Below, piece by piece: positions 38,214 through 64,000 of a stretch of DNA of 64,000 bases. The position numbers and the translations under genes were made by a program. Each line of letters begins with the position of its first letter. The first letter of the stretch is position 1. The notes beneath the pieces are model-generated. The model saw only the letters and a list, made by a program, of their open reading frames with translations. It did no database searches and was not told where the DNA came from. The stretch is from a virus, in IMG/VR virus record IMGVR_UViG_3300032246_001270; one strand, given 5' to 3'.

Positions 38214-40243
38214 TATTTTACTCTACCTTTTATATCTTGATTTGGAAACTTAATTTCAAAAACAGATGGGTCTAACGAAGGATAAACAATTTTATCTTTT
38301 GTTGCTGCATCTATATTATATGAATTTGTTGAATATGGTAATCCACATTTATTTATTACTTTTAACATAGGTACGGAAGATACTCCTTCTGTATTAGCTA
38401 AAAGTAATTCAATTTCATTCAAATTTATTGTTTGGTTAAAATTCCAATTATCTATATTGAAATAATCTTTTAATTCATTTATACATTTTGTCAATACTTC
38501 CGATTTATTATAATTTGGATAAACAACAATTTCAAAATCTAATCCTATATTTATTACAAATCCATCATTTATATTAACACCATCTGTTAATATTCTATAT
38601 TCATTTAAATATGTCTTAAGATTTTCTTTTACTGCTCTATTAAGATTTGTTAAATTACTATTATCATCATATCCTAACAAATATAAATTAATTGCAAATG
38701 GATTATTTTTTTCGTTTTCATTTGAAGTTTTTCCTATAAGAAATTGAGTAATATTTTGTTTTATTTGACCTTCGGTTGGTGTAGTTGATTGTTTAGTAAA
38801 GTTCATAACCAAATCAGTAAATTCTTGCAAATGATTTGGAGATGCTAATATAGATGATGGTGAATTATTATCTAATGTACCATCTGCTACTGCAAATGCT
38901 TTTGATATAGAACCAAATTTTGTTGGCATTGATAAAACTCGTATCTGATAATCTTTTGCTGTTACTGCTCTGTTTTGAGAACCAAAATTTGCTAAAGCAT
39001 TTTGTCTTATTTCTTCAATAGATTCACCACCCCTACCACCAACAGCAGGTACTTCATTATCAACTGCTAATGAATTTTTTGCAACATTATATATAGATAA
39101 CTCAGTTGTATTTAATAATCCAGACATATCTTCATAAGATATACCATCTATTTTGGTAAGTTCTCCACTTGCAACATTTGATTTAACACCACCACCAGTG
39201 TAATACTTAACAGTTATAGTTGTATTTGATGGAGATGTACCATACGTTTTTGTTTTTAAAAAATTAGTTGGGTCAAATGATTCTTCTAATCTACTAATAG
39301 AATTTGGTAATCCTAATCCAACATTTTTAAGATTTGGAATTAATGTTTCATCAGATGCCGTTGGGTCACCTGCTCCAAATTGTAAAGTTGTTGTACTATC
39401 TGAATTTATTTTTACTGTAAATCTCTTAGGAGTTTTTATTGTTTTTAAAATATATGGAACAGTATCTTTATGTTGTGCTAAATCCGGGTCATTTTTTTCA
39501 TTATTTGGTTGCTGAATAAAAATCATCTCCTGTGCTAAATAAGGAACTTCATACCATTTATTATTATTTGAATCTCTAACATCATATATTTCAATAACAT
39601 CAGTATCATCCAAATCTATTGTTTGAAAGGATTGATAATCTGAAAATGGTATATTTTTTGTTTTTACATTAGCTGATATAGCTTGAACATATTTTTTAAT
39701 TAAATAAAATGTAGGTTCTCCAGTATTTATATCTCTTTCATATATTGTTACTTCTCTACCATCAGGATTTGAAAAATCAACTACATCTGTTGTTAAAAAT
39801 TGAACATTAGTTTTAGTAGATGAAACTACCATACCTTCCTTTATTCTTAAATAATATTTACTATCTGGCTTATTTGAACTACCATTTCCAATTGAAGGTA
39901 ATAATTGATATACAGATAGAGTTGTTAATGCCGGTGATGTTACTTTTGGTTTATATCCTAAAAATTGAGCCAAAGCAATTACACTTTGTATATCTTCTGC
40001 ATATGGTAAAATTGATTCTTTTAAAGTATCATCAGTATAGTATGCTAATACATCACCAATATAAGATGCCATTTCAATAAACATCATACCGGGTGATGTT
40101 TCATTAAAATCAGAATAGGATTTTGGATAATATGTTTTTGCAAATTCTATAAGATTAGCTCTAAAGCTAGAAAAATCTTTATTAAGATATTTTATATCCT
40201 TTCCTTTATTTTGAAAATTTTTATTTATTGTGTTTATTGCCAT
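38213..40243 (-). CDS. Baseplate wedge subunit, T4 gp6/baseplate J-like
   Basis: KDFSSFRANLIEFAK, LAQFLGYKPK, QFGAG and GGRGGESIEEIRQNA...QNRAVTAKDY. Confidence 0.88.
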   Translation of the reverse strand: MAINTINKNFQNKGKDIKYLNKDFSSFRANLIEFAKTYYPKSYSDFNETSPGMMFIEMASYIGDVLAYYTDDTLKESILPYAEDIQSVIALAQFLGYKPKVTSPALTTLSVYQLLPSIGNGSSNKPDSKYYLRIKEGMVVSSTKTNVQFLTTDVVDFSNPDGREVTIYERDINTGEPTFYLIKKYVQAISANVKTKNIPFSDYQSFQTIDLDDTDVIEIYDVRDSNNNKWYEVPYLAQEMIFIQQPNNEKNDPDLAQHKDTVPYILKTIKTPKRFTVKINSDSTTTLQFGAGDPTASDETLIPNLKNVGLGLPNSISRLEESFDPTNFLKTKTYGTSPSNTTITVKYYTGGGVKSNVASGELTKIDGISYEDMSGLLNTTELSIYNVAKNSLAVDNEVPAVGGRGGESIEEIRQNALANFGSQNRAVTAKDYQIRVLSMPTKFGSISKAFAVADGTLDNNSPSSILASPNHLQEFTDLVMNFTKQSTTPTEGQIKQNITQFLIGKTSNENEKNNPFAINLYLLGYDDNSNLTNLNRAVKENLKTYLNEYRILTDGVNINDGFVINIGLDFEIVVYPNYNKSEVLTKCINELKDYFNIDNWNFNQTINLNEIELLLANTEGVSSVPMLKVINKCGLPYSTNSYNIDAATKDKIVYPSLDPSVFEIKFPNQDIKGRVK

Positions 40244-47501: not shown

Positions 47502-49067
47502 TTAAAATATCATTTTTGACCCAATTTGGATATTATTCAATAGGGAAAAACTATCACCAAAGGACATTGCCGCTTTATAAGATGCTGAAAATCCAAATCT
47601 TTTACTTAATTTGTAATCATATCCCAACCCTACCATTGCTCCCGGTATTCTACTTACAGTACTTCCACCAGTCACCGTATTCCAAGCTAATGGAGATTGC
47701 ATTACAAATACTTGCGGAGTTAGGGTTACCTTTCTACTATAAGGGAATGGTTTCATCCAAAATCCTACTAAAGATGAACTTAAACTTACATCATATCCAC
47801 CTGTTGTTGCGTTTTGCATCATTAAAGTAATCACACCAACATTATATCCGAATGTTCCATATTTAGGGTGAGGTTTAATCCAAGTGTATCCGTTAAGGTT
47901 CATTAGAGTTCCTTTAAGATATGCAAATGTAGTTCCGTATGAATGTATTGCGTTTAATTGTCCGTTCTCAAAATCCATCTTTGTAATACCACCACTTAGT
48001 GCAAATTGGTTTAGGGTACTCCAAATAAGTGCGGTAGCTGAATATGATTTATCTCCCATCAATGAAGAACGAGATACACCCACACTCATCATTACAGCGT
48101 ATTTACCTTCCGCATCTTCCGTACCAGCCAAATCAGATGCTAACATCATTGGATTAGCTGCTACTTTCTTTTTTTCCTCTTTTTTCTTTTCTTCCTTCTT
48201 ATCCTCTTTTTTTTCTTCTTTAGACTCTTCTTTTTTTTCGTCCTTCTTCTCCTCTTTGGTTTCCTCTTTCTTTTCTTCTTTTTTACTTTCCGATTTAGTT
48301 TCCTCTTTCTTTTCTTCAGTCTTACTTTCCGATTTACTTTCAGATTTAGTTTCTGATTTTGTTTCGGTTTTAGTCTCCGTTTTAGTTTCAGTCTTTGTTT
48401 CCGTAGATGAGCTAGATGATGAAGATGAACTACTACCAGAACTGCTTCCAGAACCTCCAGAAGCACTGCTTCCTGATGATGCCGGCGGTGGAGCGGATGA
48501 ACTACTGCTTGGTGGTGGTGGAGGGGCTGATGCCGTTGGTGGTGGGGCAGTTGGTGGTGGTGGAATTGCTCCCGTTGCTGCTCCACTAGCTGCAGAACTT
48601 ACTGCTCCACTAGCTGCCGATGAAGCTGCTGAACTAGCCGCTCCACTTGCTGCTCCACTAGCCGCAGAACTAGCAGCTCCACTTGCTGCTTTTGCTGCTG
48701 CATCTGCTACTGCCTTTGCTGCTGCATCTGCTGCTGCTTGTGCCGCTGCAGCTGCTGCCGCTGCTGCCGCTTGTGATACTGTGTTTTGTACAGTTTGTTG
48801 AACTACGGTATTTGTAGGACAAGCCATAGTTGAATAAGCTGCATAAGTTGCGGATATCCAAACTTGAACTGCACCAGCCATTACTTCGGTTGGTGAGAAT
48901 ACTCTTATTTGATTGTAGAATGATACCGTTGCAAACCCATTAGTCATAGTTGTAGTGGCTACTTTAATTTCACCAGTACACTTATCCTTAAATGTTTGTG
49001 TATATGTTTGCCCCATTACTATTTGACAAAACAATACTAAAACAAATCCTAATATGTATTTTTTCAT
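47502..49067 (-). CDS. Secreted protein with long low-complexity linker and C-terminal outer-membrane beta-barrel
   Basis: Signal peptide ending VMG-Q; poly-Ala, SSAASGAA, poly-Pro, Ser/Gly, TETK and KKEE tracts; alternating beta strands; terminal Phe. Confidence 0.7.
   Translation of the reverse strand: MKKYILGFVLVLFCQIVMGQTYTQTFKDKCTGEIKVATTTMTNGFATVSFYNQIRVFSPTEVMAGAVQVWISATYAAYSTMACPTNTVVQQTVQNTVSQAAAAAAAAAAQAAADAAAKAVADAAAKAASGAASSAASGAASGAASSAASSAASGAVSSAASGAATGAIPPPPTAPPPTASAPPPPPSSSSSAPPPASSGSSASGGSGSSSGSSSSSSSSSSTETKTETKTETKTETKSETKSESKSESKTEEKKEETKSESKKEEKKEETKEEKKDEKKEESKEEKKEDKKEEKKKEEKKKVAANPMMLASDLAGTEDAEGKYAVMMSVGVSRSSLMGDKSYSATALIWSTLNQFALSGGITKMDFENGQLNAIHSYGTTFAYLKGTLMNLNGYTWIKPHPKYGTFGYNVGVITLMMQNATTGGYDVSLSSSLVGFWMKPFPYSRKVTLTPQVFVMQSPLAWNTVTGGSTVSRIPGAMVGLGYDYKLSKRFGFSASYKAAMSFGDSFSLLNNIQIGSKMIF
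48160..48775 (-). repeat. Low-complexity coding repeats (Ala, SGAA, Pro, Ser, TETK, KKEE)
   Basis: Visible in DNA (gctgct, gctccact, ggtggt, ttcttc runs) and in the protein. Confidence 0.9.
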
Positions 49068-49915
49068 TAAAAATTATTCAGCCCAATACCCAATTGCGAA
49101 TAACCTCTTATTGGGTCAGTATCAAATTTCAAAGTAAAAAATTTGAAATCTCTTAATATACCAACCTTAAATGTTGTAAAATATGCTTTTGATTTTGGAA
49201 ATGAAATACCACCTAAATCATCTTTACCTTGATATCTAATTTCTTCATGTCCAAATCCAATCATTCCGTGTACACCTAATTTATCAAACCTTTTACCACC
49301 ACCCAAATATAATGTATGTTCTTTTCTGAAATCAGTTTTACTAAGTGGAAAATCTACCATAGCTAAATTACCATAAGGAAAATATTGATTTCTATCTATT
49401 TCATAAGTCATTACATAATCCATAATAAAATATCCTTTAGTTCCACCAATTGTTCCCCAAAAGTTAGCTTGTTGATTATTTGTTTTACCTAATCCAGCTT
49501 GAACTAATAAAGGAGTACTTTGAATTGTATCTTTCTTTCCATTTTCGTATATATGAACTACATCTCTATGTCTCCATCCGTAGTTATCATACCAAATATA
49601 AGGATAAGGTGCGTACCAACCCCAAGTTCCATAATATAAACCATAAGGATTACTTATTGTAGGTCTATATCTTCTTACTAATGGTTGTTCGGGAAATGAT
49701 TGACCTGGTCTGATTGGTTCGGTTTGTGTTCTCCAACTACTAACATTATTTTGTTGTTGTGGATATGATTGTTGTACTCTAGGAGCTTCCACTCTTTGTT
49801 GAGGAGGATTTGTTCTCCAGCTACTAATTTGAGCTGATGCTACAATAATAGTTCCAAATAGGAATGCTAGGAATAAAGCACATGCTAATATTACCTTTCT
49901 TATTTCTTTTGTCAT
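49067..49915 (-). CDS. Secreted outer-membrane beta-barrel-like protein
   Basis: Signal peptide ending ASA-Q; duplicated SSWRT; Tyr/Trp-rich linker; beta strands ending QLGIGLNNF. Confidence 0.65.
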   Translation of the reverse strand: MTKEIRKVILACALFLAFLFGTIIVASAQISSWRTNPPQQRVEAPRVQQSYPQQQNNVSSWRTQTEPIRPGQSFPEQPLVRRYRPTISNPYGLYYGTWGWYAPYPYIWYDNYGWRHRDVVHIYENGKKDTIQSTPLLVQAGLGKTNNQQANFWGTIGGTKGYFIMDYVMTYEIDRNQYFPYGNLAMVDFPLSKTDFRKEHTLYLGGGKRFDKLGVHGMIGFGHEEIRYQGKDDLGGISFPKSKAYFTTFKVGILRDFKFFTLKFDTDPIRGYSQLGIGLNNF

Positions 49916-49919
49916 AGTT

Positions 49920-50663
49920 TTATCTTTGGTATAAATATAACTCTCCGTTATAATCTACCAAAATGGCACTCATATTCTCAATCCAATCCCCACTATTAAG
50001 ATATCTTTCTCCATTAATCATCATATCCGCCGGTTGGTGAATATGTCCGCAAATCACCCCAGAACACCCTTTTTTGTGGGCCATTGATAAGGCAGTGGTT
50101 TCAAAATCGTTTATATAATTTGTTGCGGCTTTAACACTTCCTTTAATCTTTTGTGATATAGATATATAAGGTAACTTTCTCCAAGTTCTATATCGGTTAT
50201 ACCAACGATTAAGCCATAATGCAAAATCATATCCAATTGAACCTATCTTTGATAACCATTTATATTTGGTTATAAAAACATCCACAACATCTCCGTGGAA
50301 AATGTAATAGCTCTGATTCCTATATACATCATCTTCCACCCAAGTTTTTGTATTAAGTACATAATCTTCTTTAATTTCAATGTGTCCAAAATTTGTGCCG
50401 ATAAACTCTTGTATAAATTCGTCATGGTTTCCTCTTATCCAAATTATTTGTGTTTTGTTAGATAACTTTAATATTTTAGAAATAACTTTAGTGTGTTTCT
50501 TTTTCCACTTAGCCCCTCTATTCAAAGCCCACCCATCAATTATATCTCCATTAAGAATAAGGAGGTCGGTTGGGTGTTTGTCTAAAAATTCTATAAACTC
50601 ATCCGCTTTACTATCTTTAATTCCTAAATGTAAATCTGATGCTATGATAGCTTGATATCTCAT
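49920..50663 (-). CDS. LpxH-like (UDP-2,3-diacylglucosamine diphosphatase family) metallophosphoesterase
   Basis: SDLHLG, NGDIIDGW, GNHD, HGD, CGHIH and YLNSGDW. Confidence 0.8.
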   Translation of the reverse strand: MRYQAIIASDLHLGIKDSKADEFIEFLDKHPTDLLILNGDIIDGWALNRGAKWKKKHTKVISKILKLSNKTQIIWIRGNHDEFIQEFIGTNFGHIEIKEDYVLNTKTWVEDDVYRNQSYYIFHGDVVDVFITKYKWLSKIGSIGYDFALWLNRWYNRYRTWRKLPYISISQKIKGSVKAATNYINDFETTALSMAHKKGCSGVICGHIHQPADMMINGERYLNSGDWIENMSAILVDYNGELYLYQR

Positions 50664-50950
50664 TTTTTAAATAATTTTTTCCAAATTTTATTTCTAGGAT
50701 TACCAAATTGCATTCCTAAATATTTTCCCAAAACTGAACCTATTATGTAAAATATTATAATTCTAAAATTTCCCTTCAATAAATCATCTATTGCAAAATA
50801 AGTAGATGCTAATGAAACTAAATTTATCCAAACTGAATTTAATAAAAGTGCTCCTACTTTATTTTGGTATGTATATTTTATTTCTAATACTTTAAAAATA
50901 TTATACATTGTTTGTGCGAATAATACTATAACTTCTTTCATTAAGACCAA
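50660..50950 (-). CDS. Small multi-pass membrane protein
   Basis: Three hydrophobic segments; YIIGSVLGKYLG. Confidence 0.6.
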   Translation of the reverse strand: MVLMKEVIVLFAQTMYNIFKVLEIKYTYQNKVGALLLNSVWINLVSLASTYFAIDDLLKGNFRIIIFYIIGSVLGKYLGMQFGNPRNKIWKKLFKK

Positions 50951-51657
50951 TAGTTATGATGATGTTTAAAAAATTGTGGATTGTTTCTATTTAAATAACT
51001 TTTTATCATTATTTGTATCATCCACCAAATACCTTTATTTTTAAATCTACGAGCACTTGTCCAAGCTCCATAGAATCTATAAATCATAAATTTGTTTGCG
51101 GATATCTTTGATGAAATTGAATAATCTTCTGCAAATAATTCATCTTCTATATACCCACCCACTTCCCAATATGCTTTTGTTTTAAAGAATTGAAATCCAC
51201 CAATTGCAAAAGGAGTACCGATTACATAACTTATCCATTGAGAAAGGTCAAACAGGCGAAAGGCCCAATTCCATCCCTTTTCGGTTTTGAATGGTACAGT
51301 CAGTAAATCGGTATCGTAAGCCAATGCCATTTCATAACAATTAACTAATGTTCTATCATTTGCTAACATTATATCGGCATCTAAAAATAAGATGTATGGC
51401 GTTTTTGCTAATTTACTTCCTTCTAAACGGCCTTTAGCTGGAAATCCTCCATCTATTACTTCAATATCTAATTTATATTTGAAATCCGCTTGTGCTTTCC
51501 ATAACCACCAAAAAGATTCTTCCTCATCGGAAACATCTGCTATTATTACTTTGGTATCATTTATAAATTGTTGTTTGGCAATTAATCCAATACAATCATA
51601 AATGTTAATTCCTTCGTTTTTACAAGGTATTACTATCGTTATTTGTTTACTTAACAT
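50941..51657 (-). CDS. GT2 family glycosyltransferase
   Basis: IVIPCKNE, LFLDAD, GGY.E...AEDY and TSARRF. Confidence 0.88.
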   Translation of the reverse strand: MLSKQITIVIPCKNEGINIYDCIGLIAKQQFINDTKVIIADVSDEEESFWWLWKAQADFKYKLDIEVIDGGFPAKGRLEGSKLAKTPYILFLDADIMLANDRTLVNCYEMALAYDTDLLTVPFKTEKGWNWAFRLFDLSQWISYVIGTPFAIGGFQFFKTKAYWEVGGYIEDELFAEDYSISSKISANKFMIYRFYGAWTSARRFKNKGIWWMIQIMIKSYLNRNNPQFFKHHHNYWS

Positions 51658-53599: not shown

Positions 53600-54322
53600 T
53601 TATTTAGCGAATACGCCCTTTTTAATCATTTTATCTAATATATTTGCACATGCTATATCTAATGCTTTTTTAGTTGAAATACTAATAGTTGATTGGTTAA
53701 ATTTAATTGGGTCTATTGAAGCATCTGAAACTAATGTTAATTGTCTATTTGTTTTAGCTTCACCCAAACCAGATGCTGCTATGATAGTTCCATTCTCTGC
53801 ATTTGTAAAACGTACCTGTAAACCTAAACGAGTTACTAAGTTATCTTTGATACCATCCTTTAAATTAATAGTTTCATCTTCGGATACTGAATAATCATAT
53901 ACTTCAATTTCAACAAAGTAATGTGCTAACTTAATCTTTCCTCTACCATCTAATTTGTTTTCGGAAATACCAGCTTGTGATGCTTGATATTGTTTTACCA
54001 TTCTATTTTTAATCTCAGTCTTATCTTCGGTAAATTCAAATCTGTTAAGGTTGTCCAAATATTCTAATACGATATTTGCAACACCCAATCCAACTCTCTT
54101 TTCTTTTAGTTCAGGATACATTTCATATACCTCATCACCAATACCACATTTTAGGATTTGAATATTCTTTTTAGGACCTTCATAATCCATATATTGAGAG
54201 ATATCTTTTTTCTTTTCAAAATCAGCCTTAAACTCCTCAGTCTTAGTGCTTCCTATTGTTTGAGCAACAACCACAGTGCTGCTTAATAAAAAGAAACTTA
54301 ATAATAATAATAAATTTTTCAT
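53600..54322 (-). CDS. CsgG/HfaB-family secreted protein
   Basis: Signal peptide; L..LNRFEFTED, GKIKLAHYFV.IEVYDY and LQVRFTNAENGTII match the CsgG-type alpha/beta pattern. Confidence 0.7.
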   Translation of the reverse strand: MKNLLLLLSFFLLSSTVVVAQTIGSTKTEEFKADFEKKKDISQYMDYEGPKKNIQILKCGIGDEVYEMYPELKEKRVGLGVANIVLEYLDNLNRFEFTEDKTEIKNRMVKQYQASQAGISENKLDGRGKIKLAHYFVEIEVYDYSVSEDETINLKDGIKDNLVTRLGLQVRFTNAENGTIIAASGLGEAKTNRQLTLVSDASIDPIKFNQSTISISTKKALDIACANILDKMIKKGVFAK

Positions 54323-54350
54323 ATATTTTTTTCATTTCCTATATAAATAT

Positions 54351-54380
54351 AAAAAAAGGGGAAAACTATGTTCTCCCCTT
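54351..54380 (-). terminator. Intrinsic terminator
   Basis: Minus strand AAGGGGAGAAC-ATA-GTTTTCCCCTT-TTTTT. Confidence 0.8.
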
Positions 54381-54420
54381 ATAATATATCCGCCCTTCCT
54401 ACAGTTAAAGGACATATTTA

Positions 54421-54687
54421 CTATCCTTCTTCCTCTTCAGTCTTTGTTGTTGCATCTCCACCTTTTTTTGTAAATTTATCCAAAGTATCTGCACCCATAC
54501 CAATAGCAGTAACTACCATTACGGCGTTTACTAATTCAGCAGCTGGTTTAAAGTGTTCTTCGGTAAATGAATTTGCTAACATAGTACCACAAAGAAATAA
54601 TGCACCTATAAATGCGATTACTGGTTTTACAGATATTGCACCTCTTTCGTCTTTGAAGATGTCAATTACCCATTCTTTGAATGTCAT
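54421..54687 (-). CDS. Small two-TM membrane protein (holin-like)
   Basis: 88 aa, two hydrophobic helices, charged C-terminus. Confidence 0.5.
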   Translation of the reverse strand: MTFKEWVIDIFKDERGAISVKPVIAFIGALFLCGTMLANSFTEEHFKPAAELVNAVMVVTAIGMGADTLDKFTKKGGDATTKTEEEEG

Positions 54688-54743
54688 AGTTTTTGTATTT
54701 AAAAATTAAACTATGTAACCGATTTAAGAAACATATTAATATT

Positions 54744-55100
54744 TTACCATTGTGCTGGCTTCTCTTTGAACTCATCACCTTCTTTCTTTTTAGGTTTTGG
54801 TGCATCTGCTGGTTTAGCAGTTGTTGTTCCACCACCTTTGTTGATGATTACTGTTTTACCTGCTCCCGCTTGTTGTTGCTGAGGGATGTTAATGTTGATT
54901 GATTGCGGTTGAACTTGCTTATCACTATCTTTTGGTTTTTGTAAGTAGGACATTAAAAATGTACCCCCACCTACTACCAATGTACTAACCGTACCAATAA
55001 TAGTTTTTTTCAAACCACTCATTGTACCATCATTATGTTTTTCGTTTTTAGCCATTGCAGCTTCTTCCGATGTTTTTGTTGTTTTTGTTGTTTTTGCCAT
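54744..55100 (-). CDS. Single-TM protein with low-complexity tail
   Basis: IIGTVSTLVVGGGTFLM followed by a Q/P/K-rich tail. Confidence 0.6.
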   Translation of the reverse strand: MAKTTKTTKTSEEAAMAKNEKHNDGTMSGLKKTIIGTVSTLVVGGGTFLMSYLQKPKDSDKQVQPQSININIPQQQQAGAGKTVIINKGGGTTTAKPADAPKPKKKEGDEFKEKPAQW

Positions 55101-55103
55101 AAT

Positions 55104-55475
55104 TTATATTTTATTAAAGTCAGTTATTCCTAATTGATTACCAGCTGCATCATATAATGCAATTCTATATGCTGATGTTGGGAAAGCGTTAGTATATACC
55201 TTTAAGATATTATCGCCTACTTTTACATCCATAGTAGATTTAGATACTACTCTATTAGCAATATCAGTAATCTTTACAGTCACAGTTTGAGCTACATCAC
55301 TTTTTACATTCATAGCTACTTCCGAAGTTACAAATTGTGATTGTAGTTTAATACCAACCGATGATGCTATTGCTAAATCAGTTCCAGTAACTTGTGCTAT
55401 TGGAGTTGGTACATCTACTTTTGTACATCCAGCAAATACGAAGGTTGCAACCAATATTAATGCTAATTTTTTCAT
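55104..55475 (-). CDS. Lipoprotein with T9SS C-terminal-domain-like Ig fold
   Basis: Lipobox FAG-C; VKITDIANRVV...LKVYTNAFPTSAYRIAL...DFNKI. Confidence 0.6.
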   Translation of the reverse strand: MKKLALILVATFVFAGCTKVDVPTPIAQVTGTDLAIASSVGIKLQSQFVTSEVAMNVKSDVAQTVTVKITDIANRVVSKSTMDVKVGDNILKVYTNAFPTSAYRIALYDAAGNQLGITDFNKI

Positions 55476-55476
55476 T

Positions 55477-55824
55477 TTACTTAATTATAATTGTTGTTTT
55501 ACCTACTTGGGTTTTGTTTCCATCCTCCAATAGTAAGTATAAATATGTTGTAGGTAACGATTTGGTGTAAAGTGTTAGTTTATTTTCTCCTATTTTTCCA
55601 GTAAATCTTTCTCTTGTCACAACTTGGTTTGTCACCGAGTCCCCAATTGTCAATGTATATACGCCACCAGCCTTTAAGTTAAATTTGATTTCTTGTCCAT
55701 CAGTTACCTCACTTTGTTTAGTACTAAAGATATCAGTATTTGTAGCTACTATTGGTAAAGGTGCATCCACCTTTCTACATGCGGAAAGTAATACTAAACT
55801 TAATATAAAAAATATCTTTCTCAT
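55477..55824 (-). CDS. Lipoprotein with T9SS-CTD-like Ig fold, paralogue of 55104..55475
   Basis: Lipobox LSA-C; C.KVD.P.PI, GEN.L.LYT..LPT and KTTIIIK. Confidence 0.6.
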   Translation of the reverse strand: MRKIFFILSLVLLSACRKVDAPLPIVATNTDIFSTKQSEVTDGQEIKFNLKAGGVYTLTIGDSVTNQVVTRERFTGKIGENKLTLYTKSLPTTYLYLLLEDGNKTQVGKTTIIIK

Positions 55825-57740
55825 TAGTTTACTTTAAGTTTTAATTGTTTACCATCTTTATTAACTGCATCAGTAGAACCAATTGCTAATAATCCTAAAG
55901 TGTTTGTAATTCCTCTAGTTGGTGTGAATATTACTTTATATTCAGTTGTATTATCTAAAGAAGTGCTACCATCCGTAATCAAAGAACCTAAATTTACAAA
56001 CGTTCCTTTATCAGTTCCATAATTCATTGGAGAACCTTTTGTTTTAAATTCAACACCTTCAAACTTTAAAACTGAATTATCATAGTTTAATTGAAATTGA
56101 GTTCCTACTACATTTTGTTGTAATGGGTCAAATGTTATGTAAGCATACACTTTACCATTTGCTAATTCCGTTATGATAGAGGATTGTACATCCGTTGATA
56201 CAGCCGTTGTTCTAACACTCATTGTAGTTATACCATTTGATTTAGGTATGGTTGAATGAGATAGATTTACATCACCTTTCCAAGCCATAGCTAAATTCAA
56301 GGTATCCGTAGATTTGCCAGTGTTTATATCAAATGAATAATTACTATCTAATGGATTTGTAAACGTAGTCCAATTAGATTTACCAATTTTATCATAAGTT
56401 GATTGTGATATTATTCTCAATGTATTACTTAATTTAAATGTATCAACTATGTTTTTCTTTCCGGTTAAATGTTGTAATAATAAAAACGCATCAGCTTCAT
56501 TAAAGTAACCATCATTATTTACATCTCCGTTTTTATATTGAATACCATATGTAAATTCGTTTCCACTTTGATTTCCAAATATACCAACATTTGCTACTTC
56601 CTTAAATGCCAACCAAACATCCGATACCGTTACAATACTATTATATAATGTTGCTAAATTGTTTGTAGTTGTCAATGATATTTTTTGTGTTTTATATGCT
56701 TGAGTTGCAGAAAATGCAATTGTACTTTGAAAAGCATAATCTGTATTCCAACCATTTACATTTCTAATAGATGAATTATTTGCGGAAGTTCCATCAGTTA
56801 TTTTTGTTAGTGGTGATGGTACGGTATATATTGCCCAAGTTCCATCATTTGAAGAAAATGTAACAGGCCCATCATATGCATCAAATATTTTTACACTATT
56901 AATTGTAGTTGGGTCTATATTACCAACTTGTCTCATATCAATTAATAATCTACTATTACCATTCAACCAACTTGCGTTTGGATTTGTGTAAGACCATTCA
57001 ACTTGACCGGCTGTAATTGTTGCTTTGTATCCAGTATTAACTTTGTTACTATCTAATAAAGATGTTATATCTGCCGTTCCGTTTGAACTTAGTGCCGAAC
57101 CCAATGAGAATTTAGTGGCATCTACGTTTGTATTAAAATTAAAATTAGTAATTGCTTTTTTAGTTGGTGTTGATGGTTGTGTTGAATAACACTCATCCGA
57201 TTGAATACTCCAATTACTTTGAGATGGTCTTTTCCATTCCAAATCCATTCCCCAACCACCGCTCCAGTTTTGGTATCTAGCCATAAAAGCATAAGATTTA
57301 CCAGCAACTAAATTAACAGTTCCATAATGATTTGCACCAAATCCATGTGGACCATAAAATGATGTTACCACACTTCCATCCAAAGAGAAATCAACACCAT
57401 CATCTCCGTTTATGAAAAAAGAATATGTTCCAGTTTCTTTTGGAACAAAATATCCATAAATTTTAATACCGGTATAATTTCCGCCATTTGGAATATCCGA
57501 TGCTGTCCATCTACCATTAAAATCTAAAAGTGCTGAATTTACTGCTGCCGTTCCACTTGCATAAACTGTTGCACCCTTAGTTACATCAAACATATTAACA
57601 AAGTCAGTTGCGTTATTAGCATATGCTCCCGCTCCATTATTAATAATGTTATAGACAGTATAATTCAAATAACCCACCCCCGATTGGGAGTAGGTTACGA
57701 ATGATATTAATAAGAATAAGAGAGTAACTAATTTTTTCAT
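55824..57740 (-). CDS. Secreted protein: PA14 domain, dockerin-like domain, C-terminal cohesin-like domain
   Basis: Signal peptide; GYFVPKETGTYSF...DDG...L.AGKSY (PA14); GDVNNDGYFNEADAFLLLQHL (dockerin); VVGTQFQLNYDNSVLKF (cohesin). Confidence 0.7.
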   Translation of the reverse strand: MKKLVTLLFLLISFVTYSQSGVGYLNYTVYNIINNGAGAYANNATDFVNMFDVTKGATVYASGTAAVNSALLDFNGRWTASDIPNGGNYTGIKIYGYFVPKETGTYSFFINGDDGVDFSLDGSVVTSFYGPHGFGANHYGTVNLVAGKSYAFMARYQNWSGGWGMDLEWKRPSQSNWSIQSDECYSTQPSTPTKKAITNFNFNTNVDATKFSLGSALSSNGTADITSLLDSNKVNTGYKATITAGQVEWSYTNPNASWLNGNSRLLIDMRQVGNIDPTTINSVKIFDAYDGPVTFSSNDGTWAIYTVPSPLTKITDGTSANNSSIRNVNGWNTDYAFQSTIAFSATQAYKTQKISLTTTNNLATLYNSIVTVSDVWLAFKEVANVGIFGNQSGNEFTYGIQYKNGDVNNDGYFNEADAFLLLQHLTGKKNIVDTFKLSNTLRIISQSTYDKIGKSNWTTFTNPLDSNYSFDINTGKSTDTLNLAMAWKGDVNLSHSTIPKSNGITTMSVRTTAVSTDVQSSIITELANGKVYAYITFDPLQQNVVGTQFQLNYDNSVLKFEGVEFKTKGSPMNYGTDKGTFVNLGSLITDGSTSLDNTTEYKVIFTPTRGITNTLGLLAIGSTDAVNKDGKQLKLKVN

Positions 57741-57741
57741 T

Positions 57742-59409
57742 TTATTCTACGATTAGATTTACTTTGTTACCATTTGCATCTACTGCATCTGATAAAACAG
57801 TGAAGAACAATCCAGTTGTATTTTGTAAAGGTACTTTTGAAGTAAACATTAATTTGTATGGAGTACCTACTTTAATTTTAGATGTTTTGTTTTGGTCAAT
57901 AGAACCAAATGTTAATCTTCCATTATTATGAGTTGAGAAATTTGTCATTGTGTTTCCAGTATCAAATACAACATTATCTAAAGTTAATTTAGAATCATCA
58001 TAGTTCATTATTACTTGTAATCCAGCTAAGTTATCTGCTGTTAATGTACCAACTAATACTACGCTAGTTCCTGATATTGAAGAAACTAAACTTAATGTTG
58101 CGTTTGCTAATTTTTTTGATTCGTATGCTATTGTTGCAAATGATGCTACCGAATTAACTGAATTAGCTTTTACACTAATTGTACTTCCAATTGGATTAAC
58201 ACTCATACCAGTCACTGCTCCAGTTATTGAAGCCGGGTCAGTTGAGTTTGAGTAATCCAAATCTCCACCATATGCAAAAGCAAAATCATTTGTTTGTGTT
58301 GCTGATGTTACCTCTACAATGTTATCAGTTAAAACTCCAGTGTGCCATACATCCTTTTTACCATATAAGAAACCATATGAAGTTGCTGCTTTAGTTGGAA
58401 TCTTAGCTTTTGCTGCTATATCAATTCCCATTACATAAGAGAATAGATTGTATGCATCATCGTTACCAAATGTACTATTAGCGATTGTTACATTACCAAT
58501 TTTCTTTTCTAATGTTGGGTATTGGAAATAGCTTGTAGTACCATTAATACCAACCGATGCGTTTTGTAAGAATGCTTTATATGCATCTGATACAGTTACA
58601 ATATTATCTAAATAAGCCGTACCAGTTGCCGGGGTAATAACCACACCAAACTTATCACCCACTTTAGGTTTAACAAAAGAAGCGATACCTGTTGAACTAA
58701 AGTTAGCAGTTTCTATTACAGTTCCTGTCATATTAACAGTTCCGTTAGCGTTAAGTGGATATAGTTTTGCGGTTAAGTATATTACCGAAGTATCTGTTGA
58801 TGGAAATGCAACTCTAACATTAAATGCTGCTAAACCACCAGTTACAGTTCCTAAAGAAACTGCGGTACCTGTTGTTGTGATTGGTGAAATATATGCACCA
58901 CTTGCGTTATATGAATAAGCTAAATCTAATTTGTGAATATCAGTATAATCTTCTTTGGCCAATACAATATACTTTTGTGTTGCTATAATCCCATCAACAC
59001 TAGCATCAGTTCTTTGTACAGTTAATTGTCCAACATTCCAATCAGAGTTTACTGCGTAAGCCCAAGGAGATGCTTGATATTGCTCATACAATGAAGTTGC
59101 TGATTTGTTATTCGTAGTGTTAGGTGTGTAGTTATAGTTACTCCAACCTGTATAGAATGTTTGAGAAGAACTACCTTGTGAGAATGATGTTGATACATAA
59201 CTCAATGCTTTGTTATTGAATCGGTATCTTAACCAAAAATAACGAGGTGTAGTTGTTCCTTTAGCAACGGTGTACTTTACCGAAATGGTGTCACCCACTT
59301 TGTAAGGTCCAGCAGTTGTTATAGCTTGGTCTACAGTCAATTGTGCCTGTGCCGTAAACGATAATAGGGATATAACTAATACCCCTAAAAATGTTAATAA
59401 TTTTTTCAT
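57742..59409 (-). CDS. Secreted protein: cohesin-like, dockerin-like, cohesin-like
   Basis: Signal peptide ending AQA-Q; VGDTISV...RFNNKALSY; IVTVSDAY...GNV...DAY...GDLDYS; LAGLQVIMNYDDSKLTL. Confidence 0.65.
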   Translation of the reverse strand: MKKLLTFLGVLVISLLSFTAQAQLTVDQAITTAGPYKVGDTISVKYTVAKGTTTPRYFWLRYRFNNKALSYVSTSFSQGSSSQTFYTGWSNYNYTPNTTNNKSATSLYEQYQASPWAYAVNSDWNVGQLTVQRTDASVDGIIATQKYIVLAKEDYTDIHKLDLAYSYNASGAYISPITTTGTAVSLGTVTGGLAAFNVRVAFPSTDTSVIYLTAKLYPLNANGTVNMTGTVIETANFSSTGIASFVKPKVGDKFGVVITPATGTAYLDNIVTVSDAYKAFLQNASVGINGTTSYFQYPTLEKKIGNVTIANSTFGNDDAYNLFSYVMGIDIAAKAKIPTKAATSYGFLYGKKDVWHTGVLTDNIVEVTSATQTNDFAFAYGGDLDYSNSTDPASITGAVTGMSVNPIGSTISVKANSVNSVASFATIAYESKKLANATLSLVSSISGTSVVLVGTLTADNLAGLQVIMNYDDSKLTLDNVVFDTGNTMTNFSTHNNGRLTFGSIDQNKTSKIKVGTPYKLMFTSKVPLQNTTGLFFTVLSDAVDANGNKVNLIVE

Positions 59410-59410
59410 A

Positions 59411-60061
59411 TTATTTTTTTCCCAATAATTTTGTGATTAGCTTATCGGATGCTTTTTTCAGAGCGTTGCTAAGAGAAGTTTGATTAAATTTACCACCCTC
59501 ATCAACTATTAACGTAGACATTGAGATTTCTGATGATGATTCTTCAACCACTATCTCCTTCTCCTTCTTTCCTTCTTTATATAGAATACCTTGCAATCTA
59601 ACTACTACTTCTTCTTCTCCTTTATGGAATACTGAAATGTTAGTTTTTGTTGAAAGTACATCCAAATAAACAATATTAACTTTTAAGTGATATTTTGCAT
59701 CTTGTGAAAGGTCATATCCCTTTTCTTGAATATATTCCTCTAAGATGTTCTTTACTCCAAATGCAAGATTACGATTTCCTGCTAATTTACCAATCTTAAC
59801 TTGGTTTTCTACTGCATCAACCCATACATGGTCTTCTGCAACATAAAATATGTTTTCAGGTGAGTTTTTGAATGTTCCATCAATTCTCCATTCAATCCAA
59901 TTAATGATATTTCTTTGTAATTCATGCTTACCTGACAATTCTAAATAAACAAAGAACAATTGAAAACATAGGGCAAATATAACCCAAAACCCTACTAAAG
60001 AAAGAAACGCCCATGCAAGTTTATCTTTCCAGTTTAATACAAACGCTTTAATGTAAGACAT
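59411..60061 (-). CDS. Membrane-anchored CsgG-like paralogue
   Basis: N-terminal TM helix; FGVKNILEEY and KFNQTSLSNALKKA align with LGVANIVLEY and KFNQSTISISTKKA of 53600..54322. Confidence 0.6.
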   Translation of the reverse strand: MSYIKAFVLNWKDKLAWAFLSLVGFWVIFALCFQLFFVYLELSGKHELQRNIINWIEWRIDGTFKNSPENIFYVAEDHVWVDAVENQVKIGKLAGNRNLAFGVKNILEEYIQEKGYDLSQDAKYHLKVNIVYLDVLSTKTNISVFHKGEEEVVVRLQGILYKEGKKEKEIVVEESSSEISMSTLIVDEGGKFNQTSLSNALKKASDKLITKLLGKK

Positions 60062-60159: not shown

Positions 60160-60196
60160 AAAAAAGGTTATCCAACAATAAATATTGAATAACCTT
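60160..60196 (-). terminator. Intrinsic terminator whose loop contains the late promoter motif
   Basis: Minus strand AAGGTTATTCAA-TATTTATTG-TTGGATAACCTT-TTTT. Confidence 0.7.
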
Positions 60197-60222: not shown

Positions 60223-60594
60223 TTATTGTAGATTAACTAATTTGTATTTTGTAGAGTATAAAAGTTGTGAAATGTTATCTATTTGGTTTTGTATCCAAGA
60301 ATCTTGCAATTTAGAATCTTTTCTTTCATTTTCTAAAAATGTACAAAGATTTGTAAAATATTTGATTATATTTTCAACAGAAGCATCATTATCTAAATTG
60401 TTTACTTCTTTGAATTCTATGATTCCGTATTTTCCTTGGTATGATTCTACCAAACCATCAATTATACCTACTATTTCATCATAGTATATATTTAGTGCAG
60501 AATGTGCTGCAAATGCTCCCGGTCCTTTTACTCTTAGATGAAATACATGCGCTTGTGTGCGGCTGTGAAAAAACATTGATGCGATTCTTTCCAT
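60223..60594 (-). CDS. Ferritin/Dps-like four-helix protein
   Basis: H..H...H.AL..YY...D.L.E.YQG pattern. Start reassigned to ATG 60594 (MERIAS); motif at 60616-60623. Confidence 0.7.
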   Translation of the reverse strand: MERIASMFFHSRTQAHVFHLRVKGPGAFAAHSALNIYYDEIVGIIDGLVESYQGKYGIIEFKEVNNLDNDASVENIIKYFTNLCTFLENERKDSKLQDSWIQNQIDNISQLLYSTKYKLVNLQ

Positions 60595-60599
60595 AATTA

Positions 60600-61337
60600 T
60601 TAGTCTTCTTGTTCTAATAAATATTGTTCTTCCCAAAAATCATTACTTTTAGATGTAATCATTCCATAATCCAAATAATCATTTAACATTTTAGTTTGAT
60701 GTTTCTTCATTTCATTTACTACTTTTGTAATATAATGTGTTTTACAATCTGTCATTTCTCTGATTAAAAGATATAGATGTTTTTTGTTAAAATTTTCAAT
60801 ATGTTGTGACCTTCTGAATAGTTCTAACACTGCATCTGCTATTTGTATATCTCTTTTCTTTGTAAATACTCTAGTAAGGTTTTGGTCCCAATACTTTAAC
60901 ATAAGGTCTTTAAATTCACTTAATTCTTCACCAAACTGAACTTCTTTAAAATCATCTTCAGGATTCCAACTTTCAGGCATTTCTGAAAGTAGAGATGTTT
61001 TTTTAAAACGTTTATAATTTCCGTTATTTTTAAGGATTAAATGATTTTTTGCTACAATAGAAAAATAAGAAAATGCTTTTCCTTTACCTTCTTGAAACAT
61101 ATGTATCTTTTCAATTAAAGTAGATACTACTTCCATTTGAACATCTTCTTTACTTACATCAAAATAAGAAAACTTAAATGTATTAAGAATATTTTCTGCT
61201 AATTTTTCAAAAGCATATTGAATTCTATTTTTATATAAATCGTTTTTTTCTCTTTGTGATGTTGATTTGTTATATGCAATGATAGCCTGTTCGGTATCCA
61301 TTGTAAAATAAACTTTACTTTTCTTTTTACGAGGCAT
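60600..61337 (-). CDS. Phage sigma factor, T4 gp55-like (probable late sigma)
   Basis: KLAENI...F, EDVQME and KIHMFQEGKGKAFSYFSIVAKNHL (region 2); C-terminal HTH-like segment. Confidence 0.7.
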   Translation of the reverse strand: MPRKKKSKVYFTMDTEQAIIAYNKSTSQREKNDLYKNRIQYAFEKLAENILNTFKFSYFDVSKEDVQMEVVSTLIEKIHMFQEGKGKAFSYFSIVAKNHLILKNNGNYKRFKKTSLLSEMPESWNPEDDFKEVQFGEELSEFKDLMLKYWDQNLTRVFTKKRDIQIADAVLELFRRSQHIENFNKKHLYLLIREMTDCKTHYITKVVNEMKKHQTKMLNDYLDYGMITSKSNDFWEEQYLLEQED

Positions 61338-62162: not shown

Positions 62163-62735
62163 TTAAATTAAGTTCCATCCTTTTTCTAGGTAAGAATCAA
62201 CCTTTTTACTTTTTACAAATTCCATTTCACCAGCTGGTCCTTGCAACATAACTCTTTCGTTTCTACCTGGCTCTTTATCCTTTATAACAGTTTCAGAATA
62301 TTGACGAGTTATATGTGTGATATCTATACCATTTATTGCATCAATTAATCTTTGTACTAATACAGCTTCTAATAATCCTTTATCTCCAAAAAATTCATCA
62401 GAATCTTTCCAGTCATTTTTTTCTGCTTTAAATTCAACTCTACCTAAATTATCGGTAGTTATTATTACATATGGATATCTGATAGTTTTACGAACTTTAT
62501 TTTTGTTTGTATCTTTTTCAAAATAAACTAAAGGTTGTTCTGATGTTTTTTCTATTACAGGATTTACTAATGTTAGTTCATCATCTACATTACCTAATCT
62601 AATTGTTACAATTCTTTTATCAATATTTACATCAGCTGCTGTAAACATAAATCCTTCCAATTTAGATATAGCTTCTTTATATGCACTTATATCTTCTGCT
62701 GTTATTGGTGATTCATTAATTTTTTCTACTTTCAT
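62163..62735 (-). CDS. Degenerate peptide deformylase homologue
   Basis: AADVNIDKRIV, LVNPVI, KTIRY and EAVLVQRLIDAING, but no HExxH or EGCLS. Confidence 0.7.
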   Translation of the reverse strand: MKVEKINESPITAEDISAYKEAISKLEGFMFTAADVNIDKRIVTIRLGNVDDELTLVNPVIEKTSEQPLVYFEKDTNKNKVRKTIRYPYVIITTDNLGRVEFKAEKNDWKDSDEFFGDKGLLEAVLVQRLIDAINGIDITHITRQYSETVIKDKEPGRNERVMLQGPAGEMEFVKSKKVDSYLEKGWNLI

Positions 62736-62904
62736 TATTTTTGTTTTTAATATATTCTTCTATTTTTTGTGTTATATAATCTATTGTACCTTCGGGTCCT
62801 TCAAATCCCATATATTTCATATATATTTTAATTTTATTAGGATTTTCTTCTAATTCTTTTTTTAATTCTTCTAATGAAGGAAGGTGTGCGGTTATATATG
62901 TCAT
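62716..62904 (-). CDS. Hypothetical protein
   Basis: 62-aa ORF coupled to both neighbours. Confidence 0.5.
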   Translation of the reverse strand: MTYITAHLPSLEELKKELEENPNKIKIYMKYMGFEGPEGTIDYITQKIEEYIKNKNNESRKN

Positions 62905-63293
62905 TATTCTAAATCTTGAGGTCCATTTCTATAAACTCTATAACTATCTTCATCAAAATGCTCCGTACTTACTTCCATAATAGTTGCTCCTTCGGACAGT
63001 GCTATTAATTGATGAGGTAATCCTTTCTCAATATAAACTACATCACCTTCTTGTAATTGTGTGTAGTTTCTTTCAGCTGCTTCAGTATCTATCCAATCAA
63101 ATTGAAATGCTCCTTTTTGAACATACCAAGTTTCATTCTTTAACATATGATAATGCATTGAGAACTTATTTCCAGATTGTGTAAATATTAATAACTTTCC
63201 ACAATATTGATTATCGTTATGAATCCATAGTTCATAACCCCATTTTTTTTCAACTCTTTTTGGTTGTTTAATTTTTACATCAAAATTTGCCAT
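62904..63293 (-). CDS. Cupin, mannose-6-phosphate isomerase type II-like
   Basis: VEKKWGYE, SMHYH..KNETWYV, GD...I..G.PH and EVST. Confidence 0.75.
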   Translation of the reverse strand: MANFDVKIKQPKRVEKKWGYELWIHNDNQYCGKLLIFTQSGNKFSMHYHMLKNETWYVQKGAFQFDWIDTEAAERNYTQLQEGDVVYIEKGLPHQLIALSEGATIMEVSTEHFDEDSYRVYRNGPQDLE

Positions 63294-63299
63294 AATATT

Positions 63300-64000
63300 T
63301 TAATTTGATAAAGGTGCTTTAATTGCTGGGTGTGATTGATATCCTTCTAATATAAAATCCTCCGGAGTATTACAACATATACCATCTATTTTTGCATTTG
63401 TTTTTAACTTTGGTAAATCAAATGGTTCTCTACTAATTTGTTCTTTGGCTTGCTCAATATGATTTAAATACAAATGAGTATCACCCAAATTACCAATCAA
63501 TTCATCAGGTATCATATCCACTTCGTTTGCTATAATATGAAGTAATAATCCATATGAAGCAATATTAAATGGTAATCCTAAAAATGTATCTACACTTCTT
63601 TGATTCCACATTAAAGAAATATATCTTTTACCATCTTGTTCTCTTGTCCAAATTTGGAATCCATAATGGCAAGGTGGTAGTACCATTTGGTCTAACTCAC
63701 CTACATTCCAAGCTGATACCATTAATCTTCTACTATCCGGATTCTCTTTTAAGTTTCTTACTAATTCATCTATTTGGTCAATCTTACCATTTTCACCTTG
63801 CCATTGTCTCCATTGTTTTCCATAAATAGGTCCTAATTCACCATCGGTTCTTCCACTCTTATTATAATCACCATCCCAAATATGATTGTTATGTTTATGT
63901 AAGAAAGCAATATTAGTTTGGCCTGTTAAAAACCAAAGTAGTTCTGATACAATTTGCTTCCATGCCATTTTCTTTGTAGTAAGTAGTGGAAACCCCTCAC
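63300..64000 (-). CDS. thyA: Thymidylate synthase, 5' end outside the window
   Basis: FPLLTTKK (upstream of the track start), ELLWFL, LGPIYGKQWR, LPPCH, QRSVD..LGLPFN and GDTHLY. Confidence 0.95.
   Translation of the reverse strand, partial: EGFPLLTTKKMAWKQIVSELLWFLTGQTNIAFLHKHNNHIWDGDYNKSGRTDGELGPIYGKQWRQWQGENGKIDQIDELVRNLKENPDSRRLMVSAWNVGELDQMVLPPCHYGFQIWTREQDGKRYISLMWNQRSVDTFLGLPFNIASYGLLLHIIANEVDMIPDELIGNLGDTHLYLNHIEQAKEQISREPFDLPKLKTNAKIDGICCNTPEDFILEGYQSHPAIKAPLSN

Follow-up and report, generated by a model that had tools for sequence, protein, structure and literature searches.

A phage-encoded module of exported cohesin-fold, dockerin-like and lectin proteins with a divergent CsgG-family protein

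Gene content and organisation of the locus

The stretch of DNA analysed here, referred to as the window, comprises 64,000 nucleotides of the IMG/VR virus record IMGVR_UViG_3300032246_001270, and the system in question is a group of eight genes on its minus strand that encode exported proteins, among them proteins with cohesin folds, dockerin-like regions and a lectin-type head. The genes were named H, G, F, E, D, C, B and A, in 5' to 3' direction along the minus strand (Table 1). The window is identified as phage DNA by a baseplate wedge gene at 38213-40243, and the closest isolate is Flavobacterium phage vB_FspM_immuto.

An initial annotation had described a tightly coupled minus-strand operon, followed beyond a terminator by a second CsgG-like gene, and both points held. 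All eight open reading frames are located at the positions claimed for them. The intergenic spacing from H through C is -1 to 3 nucleotides, thus these genes are tightly coupled, and C and B are separated by a gap of 56 nucleotides. A strong terminator-like hairpin is present 5' of H and another between B and A, and from this layout of the sequence we conclude that H to B form a single operon and that A is transcribed separately. A Bacteroidetes -7 box (TAnnTTTG) lies 42 nucleotides 5' of H, with 144 sites in all being too common to count, and the promoter motif TATAAATA was not enriched.

All eight products carry an export feature, that is a Sec signal, a lipobox or a hydrophobic anchor, as judged by reading of the sequence and by hydropathy. 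The signals and anchors proposed initially were all recovered: H has an N-terminal transmembrane (TM) segment (residues 13-44), G, F and A have Sec signals, and D and E have lipoboxes. For G, F and A the predicted cleavage leaves a glutamine at position +1 (A has ...VVVAQ/T). This glutamine is invariant across the G family (Q23) and the F family (Q19), and it fits the 'Q-rule' for signal-peptidase-I substrates of Bacteroidetes. B contains one clear TM segment and a second, weaker hydrophobic stretch, and its C-terminal end is rich in charges.

Database families contributed little. PHROGs contain no family for the eight module proteins, except for a match of D to Cor that is confined to the signal peptide, and NCBIfam gave nothing above noise. 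No Pfam match to curlin repeats (CsgA/B), CsgE or CsgF was found among the eight module proteins and 15 flanking or related proteins; the earlier statement that no curlin-repeat gene is visible agrees with the Pfam matches of these 23 proteins.

Table 1. Features of the module and of loosely linked genes in the window.
Feature	Coordinates	Strand	Description
Terminator-like hairpin 5' of H	60164..60196	-	14-bp stem followed by a T run; ends the upstream gene; marks the 5' limit of the operon
H, 216 aa	59411..60061	-	Inner-membrane anchor (TM segment 13-44) and periplasmic alpha/beta domain of the LptE / Lipoprotein_16 / CsgG-like superfamily
G, 555 aa	57742..59409	-	Sec signal; cohesin / beta-domain / degenerate dockerin-like helices / cohesin
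F, 638 aa	55824..57740	-	Sec signal; PA14 74-182, middle domain, dockerin-like ~367-428 (loop DVNNDGYFNEAD), C-terminal cohesin
E, 115 aa	55477..55824	-	Putative lipoprotein (LSA/C-R-K-V-D), small beta-sandwich
D, 123 aa	55104..55475	-	Putative lipoprotein (FAG/C-T-K-V-D), paralogue of E
C, 118 aa	54744..55100	-	Moderately hydrophobic segment ~33-53; Q/K/P-rich tail
B, 88 aa	54421..54687	-	Clear and weaker hydrophobic stretch; highly charged C-terminus; holin-like topology
Terminator-like hairpin separating B from A	54356..54380	-	Between B and A
A, 240 aa	53600..54322	-	Sec-exported, non-lipidated, divergent CsgG-family protein
282-aa exported protein, loosely linked	49067..49915	-	Signal peptide; Trp/Tyr/Gly-rich; C-terminal end ...GLNNF
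521-aa exported protein, loosely linked	47502..49067	-	Signal peptide, low-complexity linker, end ...KMIF
aa, amino acids.

Cohesin folds, dockerin-like regions and exchangeable heads in G and F

G was modelled with AlphaFold using 30 diverse homologues (predicted local distance difference test score, pLDDT, 85.6), and the top Foldseek matches of the model were cohesins. The nine-strand jelly-roll fold of cohesins was found twice, in residues 20-190 (Z 13.1-13.3, root-mean-square deviation (rmsd) 2.3, 130 aligned residues; 1g1k and 2jh2) and in residues 435-555 (Z 14.7, rmsd 2.0, 120 aligned residues to 6kgc_A; Z 14.4 to 1ohz_A). A small beta domain and four helices (265-326) are located between them. 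The cohesins of G are visible by fold comparison only: a sequence-profile search with the G family against solved structures gave nothing useful, and neither F nor G of the window matched the Pfam cohesin family (PF00963). This family was matched by 17 of 39 relatives of F (best 2.5e-8), and the C-terminal 290 amino acids of F are homologous to the C-terminal half of G (E-value 2e-15).

The head of F is a PA14 domain (PF07691, residues 74-182; 6.3e-10, 39.5 bits compared with a Pfam gathering cut-off of 24), which also matches the solved PA14 domains 6qdi/6qe7 at 1.5e-9. Further downstream, the second repeat of a dockerin-like region contains the canonical 12-residue calcium loop DxNxDGxxxxxD, here DVNNDGYFNEAD, followed by the helix AFLLLQHLTG. 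A profile of this region matched the solved dockerins 8x3a (1e-7), 3ul4_B (7e-5) and 1ohz_B (2e-3), always with the second repeat. The Pfam Dockerin family (PF00404) gave a value of 0.0076 for F of the window and of 3.3e-4 for the best relative, and Dockerin_1 was found in four of the 39 relatives. Among the latter the head is a C-type lectin in 21 proteins, PA14 in seven and LCCL in seven, while the tail is constant. Judged from these sequences, the head of F is swapped between phages on a constant tail.

Related viral loci gave a further lead. We compared the 80 best loci, including their flanks, with the window proteins and rebuilt their architectures; 50 of them span the whole module. The calcium-loop motif is present in F in 34 of the 35 fully spanned loci with G and in two of the 15 without G, the latter two being the near-identical contigs L074 and L075. 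This co-occurrence points to a coupling of the F dockerin with the G cohesins and lends indirect support to surface display. A complex prediction for the N-terminal cohesin of G and the dockerin region of F yielded scores of 0.03, 0.45 and 0.01 with an uncertain fold of the partner, and it carries no weight either way.

A tblastn search against 50,697 phage records found just PA14 heads in unrelated phages for F and nothing for G. Among 185,579 species genomes, a relative of G (49% identity) was detected in one 3.4-kb contig (L082, JBIPMA010000251.1) of a lake Schleiferiaceae metagenome-assembled genome (MAG). That a single short MAG contig contains a relative of G argues for scaffold proteins that are phage-specific; the contig probably derives from a phage and was placed in the bin of its host, and it hints at freshwater Schleiferiaceae as a possible host lineage.

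Conservation of the module in related viral contigs

Thirty-four fully spanned loci share the gene order H-G-F-E-D-C-(B)-A, and one more (L066) is rearranged. These 35 loci, termed class I, have the architecture H - G - F - E - D - C - two-TM protein of ~200 amino acids - B-like - (h) - A, where h is a small TM protein described below. Thirteen of the 15 loci without G have the architecture H - F - D/E-like lipoprotein - C - two-TM protein - h - A, with F proteins of ~702 amino acids (527 in one locus). The other two, L074 and L075, encode an F of 589 amino acids and, between the module and A (L074:6469-9920), a TonB-dependent-type barrel with plug domain (3.1e-20) and a lipoprotein of 400 amino acids. 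Relatives of C are present in 66-67 of the related loci, and at the position of B a protein of 85-92 amino acids with the same layout is found. The synteny of the module in relatives, which had been proposed as a check, is thus borne out by about 50 related viral contigs, including the variant without G. We regard the module as conserved and specific to phages of freshwater Flavobacteriales.

The protein between C and B is conserved in most related loci (e.g. L065:8842-9426 and L006:7499-8173). It has 172-233 amino acids, two TM helices and a Cys/His-rich C-terminus (...CEHxWGDSxHDGHEECQKCG). With tblastn no match to it was obtained in the window, thus the module is present there in a reduced form. 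Class I loci contain sporadic insertions, namely a homologue of the 521-amino-acid protein, a pair of glycosyltransferase and phosphoesterase genes, and DUF2589 pairs. Such a DUF2589 pair (204 and 158 amino acids; 3e-30 and 2e-13) is located upstream of A in L010 (8821-9940) and in about ten other loci.

The CsgG-family protein A and linked exported proteins

A of the window has no Pfam match at an E-value of 0.1. An exhaustive search for relatives of A yielded 210 representatives, 38 of which were aligned. Seventeen of the aligned relatives match Pfam CsgG (PF03783; best 1.9e-17) and seven match LpoB, and the family profile matches CsgG of E. coli (3x2r/4q79) at 2e-5 over 179 positions. In fold comparisons with the A model (pLDDT 79), the top eight matches are without exception CsgG (Z 12.2-13.8), with 4uv2 at Z 13.8 (rmsd 2.9, 175 aligned residues) and 7brm at Z 12.9, followed by PelC (Z 9.6), LptE (~8.5) and TraT (7.0). 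The neighbours of A in a protein language model are CsgG/LpoB clusters as well. The CsgG-like nature that had been assigned to A is therefore confirmed by fold and family profile: A genuinely belongs to the CsgG family, of which it is a divergent representative.

A probably does not form a pore of the curli type. A and its close phage relatives lack the lipobox cysteine, whereas distant relatives carry ...GC. In the model of A a long hairpin is formed by strands 135-153 and 157-174, with nine of 25 tip residues being charged (36%), and the second hairpin region is shortened to ~24 residues versus ~33 counted in CsgG of E. coli, in a part where the alignment to the PDB structure stops short. 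The missing lipid anchor, the charged hairpin and the shortened second hairpin led us to reject, as the default reading, the curli-type outer-membrane pore, which the comparison with CsgG in the initial annotation had brought into play.

A is the most conserved gene of the module, with a median identity of 82% compared with 46-62% for H to C. It is also widespread: 6,256 relatives were found among metagenome protein clusters at 90% identity, none of them named, and in IMG/VR there are 501 confirmed matches on contigs of up to 334 kb.

Two exported proteins are loosely linked to A. In 38 of the 80 loci A is followed, at a distance of 43 nucleotides to 5.5 kb, by a homologue of the 282-amino-acid protein, for which there is no Pfam family. 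The 521-amino-acid protein consists of an N-terminal Cys-containing domain, a low-complexity linker of ~230 amino acids (Ala/Ser/Pro, then Lys/Glu/Thr) and a C-terminal domain of ~200 amino acids, a layout that resembles an autotransporter or outer-membrane barrel. The C-terminal domain is 45% identical to a 484-amino-acid gene product encoded between D and C in L027, and genes for 456-508 amino acids are found at this place in L028, L029, L043 and L048. The signal peptide and the C-terminal Phe of the 282-amino-acid protein suggest a barrel, and the 521-amino-acid protein may be one too. If this is right, they and not A would be embedded in the membrane, and A would be a ring or plug partner.

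Next to these genes, window positions 49920-51657 (minus strand) encode a metallophosphoesterase (9.9e-14) and a family-2 glycosyltransferase (7.4e-10). The two genes lie inside the module, between B and A, in six related loci, which hints at a link between the module and surface-glycan modification.

The membrane-tethered protein H and the lipoproteins D and E

H had been taken for a TM-anchored paralogue of CsgG, a description that was not supported. BLASTP between H and A gave a weak match (E-value 6e-4 over 101 amino acids), and hhalign of the two families covered 26 columns with a probability of 18%. Sub-threshold Pfam matches of H were to Lipoprotein_16 (1.6e-4) and TraT, a lead from an atlas search was a Lipoprotein_16/LptE cluster named CsgG (score 0.92), and a profile search of the H family against the PDB found nothing. 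H is loosely CsgG-like only; the description that fits it best is that of an alpha/beta domain from the broad LptE / Lipoprotein_16 / CsgG-like group, tethered to the inner membrane.

In many relatives H is split into a TM protein of 71-77 amino acids (h) and a core of 162-172 amino acids with its own cleavable signal peptide. The h protein, which equals the N-terminal third of H in the window and has the conserved tail W-K-I-D-G-T-F-K-N-x-P-x-N-I-W-Y-E, is encoded directly upstream of the A homologue (L027-L029, L031-L072 and others). From the sequence comparison, H of the window is a fusion of the h peptide with the H core. That the two parts are fused in some phages and separate in others suggests a joint action of the TM peptide with the H core and A.

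D and E are paralogous (E-value 2e-14) with lipoboxes FAG/C and LSA/C, respectively, and their description as paralogous lipoproteins is upheld. In the D/E family the cysteine and the lysine at +3 are invariant. The surface-export signal of Bacteroidetes lipoproteins (Flavobacteriaceae-type) is optimal as C-X-K-(D/E)2 (PMC5080379), a motif that is complete in eight relatives and partial in 26. The further label of D and E as similar to a C-terminal sorting domain of the type IX secretion system (T9SS) fared less well. In the window copies no match to the T9SS sorting domain PF18962 was found, nor did NCBIfam give one, but among 51 family members sub-threshold matches to this domain occur in 10 (best 3.7e-4) and to DUF3244 in 20. 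The family profile matches the sorting domain of immuto gp015 at an E-value of 0.008 with low probability, and a search with it against solved structures gave nothing useful. When longer proteins with the D/E domain were sought, two odd matches were obtained. Taken from these sequences, the T9SS-like label is a weak but consistent lead. The layout of T9SS cargo with a C-terminal sorting domain is not found in the module, where D and E are free-standing lipoproteins and F and G end in cohesins; in the lineage of the window, the D/E pair comes closest to a standard sorting domain.

The D/E lipoprotein profile is likewise matched (6e-29) by P0394, a C-type-lectin protein of 866 amino acids from a JGI metagenome. 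This protein could be a fusion of F and E, or it could arise by reading through a stop codon that overlaps the next start codon. If real, it would link the lipoprotein to the lectin protein.

The counterpart in the cultured phage immuto

Phage vB_FspM_immuto (NC_055915) is a myophage from the Baltic with a genome of 160 kb, and gp013-gp018 are the counterpart of the module. The tblastn and DNA searches of its genome found the A homologue alone (gp017, 54% identity). gp013 contains a signal peptide, a C-type lectin domain (3e-15) and a dockerin-like tail with the loop DVNNDSRFTVSD; gp014 has a signal peptide and, by eye, cohesin-like and dockerin-like segments; in gp015 a cohesin (5.9e-9) is fused to a T9SS sorting domain (2.4e-8), both above the Pfam threshold. 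By analogy this layout could be read as cargo, adaptor and anchoring scaffoldin, and the sorting domain predicts transport of the gp015 anchor to the cell surface through the type IX system of the host. gp015 is the best, although indirect, support from sequence for a module that acts at the surface. The immuto record names two of the domains only, and the literature searched contained no work on these genes.

Neighbouring genes

In the window the module is flanked by genes for thymidylate synthase, peptide deformylase, the family-2 glycosyltransferase and the metallophosphoesterase. Peptide deformylase (7e-7) and thymidylate synthase (1.5e-80), encoded at 62163-63968 (minus strand), are auxiliary genes typical of large aquatic myophages. 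The upstream neighbours at 60223-61337 (minus strand), a DUF5856 protein (1e-14) and a protein of 245 amino acids, travel with the module in 8-9 loci. The latter is 85% conserved across phages and without Pfam family, and its N-terminus presumably recalls the T4-type late sigma factor gp55. Two very large open reading frames of the structural block (2,527 and 1,754 amino acids) are located at 13686-21269 and 29446-34710 (minus strand), respectively.

Discussion

At these loci we observed the domains, export signals and gene order described above, the swapping of heads, and a dockerin motif in F that tends to accompany G. The interpretation that we prefer, and to which we give an even chance, is that lectins are displayed on a cohesin-dockerin scaffold at the envelope of the infected cell. 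Binding partners, final location and purpose are what we infer here. F would be the working subunit, with a swappable sugar-binding head on a constant dockerin-like/cohesin tail, and G would be an adaptor whose extra N-terminal cohesin takes up the dockerin of F. The C-terminal cohesins of both proteins could link to further subunits or to an anchor, D and E would hold the assembly at the outer membrane, and H, C and B together with a periplasmic A might provide support or aid export from the envelope side. A would probably be the ring or plug partner of an outer-membrane barrel, like PelC and LptE. The outcome would be a cellulosome-style scaffold presenting lectins, with the most likely purpose of binding a variable host surface glycan and thereby masking the phage receptor or sticking cells together. 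Receptor masking would stop superinfection and the loss of progeny on debris. The heads are unrelated lectins, which suggests a strain-variable glycan as ligand and favours these two roles; both are our leading guesses.

A bolder version, which we consider rather unlikely in its entirety, is a self-assembling lectin coat. Here, subunits with both dockerin and cohesin would polymerise on the infected Flavobacteriales cell and expose strain-matched lectin tips, anchored by lipoproteins with the fold of the T9SS sorting domain and served by a non-lipidated CsgG-fold ring and phage-supplied barrels. If true, viruses would here build a cell-surface organelle of a new kind, which would control who adsorbs or sticks to infected lake cells. 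The polymer or lattice formation and the roles named in the initial annotation (aggregation, exclusion and deterrence of grazers) are conjectural.

Several observations weigh against the display of lectins at the surface. In the Pfam and NCBIfam scans, F and G contained neither a T9SS sorting domain nor another recognised signal for crossing the outer membrane, thus they may stay in the periplasm. In the window, the sequence from the lipobox cysteine onwards is C-T-K-V-D in D and C-R-K-V-D in E, with a single acidic residue after C-x-K, which leaves their surface export uncertain. The dockerins of F and G are half-degenerate and not complete. In F, which had been described as a PA14-dockerin-cohesin protein, the PA14 domain, the canonical second calcium loop and the cohesin tail stand, but the first dockerin repeat is degenerate (...LYNSIVTVSD and a helix, with only positions 5 and 12 kept). 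In G, described as cohesin-dockerin-cohesin, the two cohesin folds are clear (Z 13-14.7), but in place of the dockerin both calcium loops are degenerate (NVTIANSTFGNDD). Only two clades, and hence few independent events, underlie the observation that G and the dockerin motif occur together. Finally, A is set apart from the other genes by its separate transcription, its far higher conservation and its frequent distance of 2-4 kb, and it may serve another function than the rest of the module.

The main rival, which we regard as unlikely, is a purely periplasmic complex that does not cross the outer membrane and whose heads bind peptidoglycan or a periplasmic glycan. Such a complex might stiffen or re-wire the envelope, block the entry of later phage DNA or tune the timing of lysis. 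Besides the missing translocation signal of F and G, it would fit the inner-membrane anchor of H, the soluble A with its periplasmic-type signal, the holin-like layout of B and the CsgG/LpoB/LptE fold, of a kind typically found in lipoprotein partners that face the periplasm. However, the swapping of three unrelated lectin types suggests a variable ligand and not the conserved peptidoglycan, a cohesin protein of immuto carries a true T9SS sorting domain, and the motif of D and E resembles a surface-export signal. It is also conceivable, but improbable, that the scaffold gathers glycans or other nutrients for the infected cell together with outer-membrane transporters, as a small, phage-supplied surface complex of the Sus type. 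Such use of surface lipoproteins and glycan binders is known from Bacteroidota (PMC5080379), in L074 the TonB-dependent-type barrel with plug and the lipoprotein are found inside the module, and two further exported barrel-like proteins are linked to it. Yet the transporter insertion is sporadic (two of 50 spanned loci), the window contains no glycoside hydrolase or SusC/SusD-type gene, and head swapping fits strain-specific glycans better than nutrients.

Two other explanations would give the genes a conventional place in the phage life cycle. The small proteins could form a lysis cassette, with B as holin, C as an inner-membrane spanin-like protein, D and E as outer-membrane spanin-like lipoproteins and the large proteins as accessories. 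B with its 88 amino acids, hydrophobic stretches and charged C-terminus, C with its N-in single-segment layout, the lipoproteins and the position of these genes at the 3' end of the operon are consistent with it. We nevertheless consider it quite improbable: no PHROG or Pfam lysis family was matched, D and E are beta-sandwiches of 100 amino acids and not short proline-rich o-spanins, the module contains no endolysin (in immuto the endolysin is ~8 kb away), and F, G, H and A would be left unexplained. F and G could also be virion parts, such as tail-fibre or decoration proteins with exchangeable receptor-binding heads; swapping of heads resembles that of receptor-binding proteins, and the module adjoins the structural block. 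But the invariant Sec signals with the conserved glutamine at the cleavage site, the lipoboxes and the T9SS sorting domain in a relative would place these proteins outside the cytoplasm, where virions are assembled, and no tail PHROG was matched. On account of these export signals, which are conserved, we rejected this very improbable explanation.

The module is very common, with widespread lake phages devoting 6-9 kb to exported proteins. If the scaffold masks receptors or glues cells together, the spread of infection among freshwater Flavobacteriales would be altered. Cohesin-dockerin systems are well known in bacteria and archaea, and in the literature searched no description of a phage module with cohesin, dockerin and lectin proteins was found. 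Should it mask receptors or join cells, the scaffold would also be the first demonstrated case of a cohesin-dockerin assembly system that a virus runs. Protein engineers may in addition take an interest in the constant docking tail with its swappable heads.

Compared with cellulosomes and non-cellulosomal scaffolds (1ohz, 6kgc, 2xdh and 2jh2), the module shares the cohesin folds, a dockerin-type calcium loop with helix, a variable functional head on a constant docking tail and an adaptor with extra cohesins. It differs in coming from a Bacteroidota phage, in having lectins instead of enzymes as putative cargo, in subunits that each carry plug and socket, and in the degenerate first dockerin repeat; it is known from sequences and models. 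PelC-PelB and LptE-LptD are represented by the next-best fold matches of A and by the putative barrel gene linked in 38 of the 80 loci, whereas A is not lipid-anchored, and for the 282-amino-acid protein a barrel is deduced from its signal peptide and C-terminal Phe only. At the level of function only, the module could be an analogue of Llp of T5, Cor and TraT, envelope proteins of mobile elements that block later entry. TraT has the broad alpha/beta fold in common with A and is a weak Pfam match of H. These are single small proteins that bind a protein receptor, in contrast to at least eight genes with lectin heads in the window.

Clusters with CsgG and CsgF are known from pelagimyophages and the OM43 phage Melnitz, where their function is unexplained (PMC7029224, PMC9004378). 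For the curli genes of pelagimyophages a 'sibling capture' has been proposed (PMC7029224), and uptake and control of lysis have been suggested for these clusters as well (PMC7029224, PMC9004378). As with the window, these are aquatic myophages in which a CsgG-family gene belongs to a small operon for exported proteins, without genes for curlin subunits. In those phages, however, CsgG was recognised directly by annotation and by Swiss-Model/HHblits, CsgF is present and transfer from Proteobacteria is apparent, whereas in the window CsgG is seen via profiles and fold only, without lipid anchor, with charged hairpins and with no CsgF found, and cohesin, dockerin and lectin proteins make up the core of the operon. 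The module thus offers a testable counterpart to the marine clusters. The sole cultured system that carries it, phage immuto on Flavobacterium sp. LMO8, has the A homologue beside C-type lectin, cohesin-like and cohesin proteins, and it differs from the window in its arrangement of a lectin with dockerin-like tail, a protein with cohesin and dockerin-like segments, and a fusion of cohesin and T9SS sorting domain.

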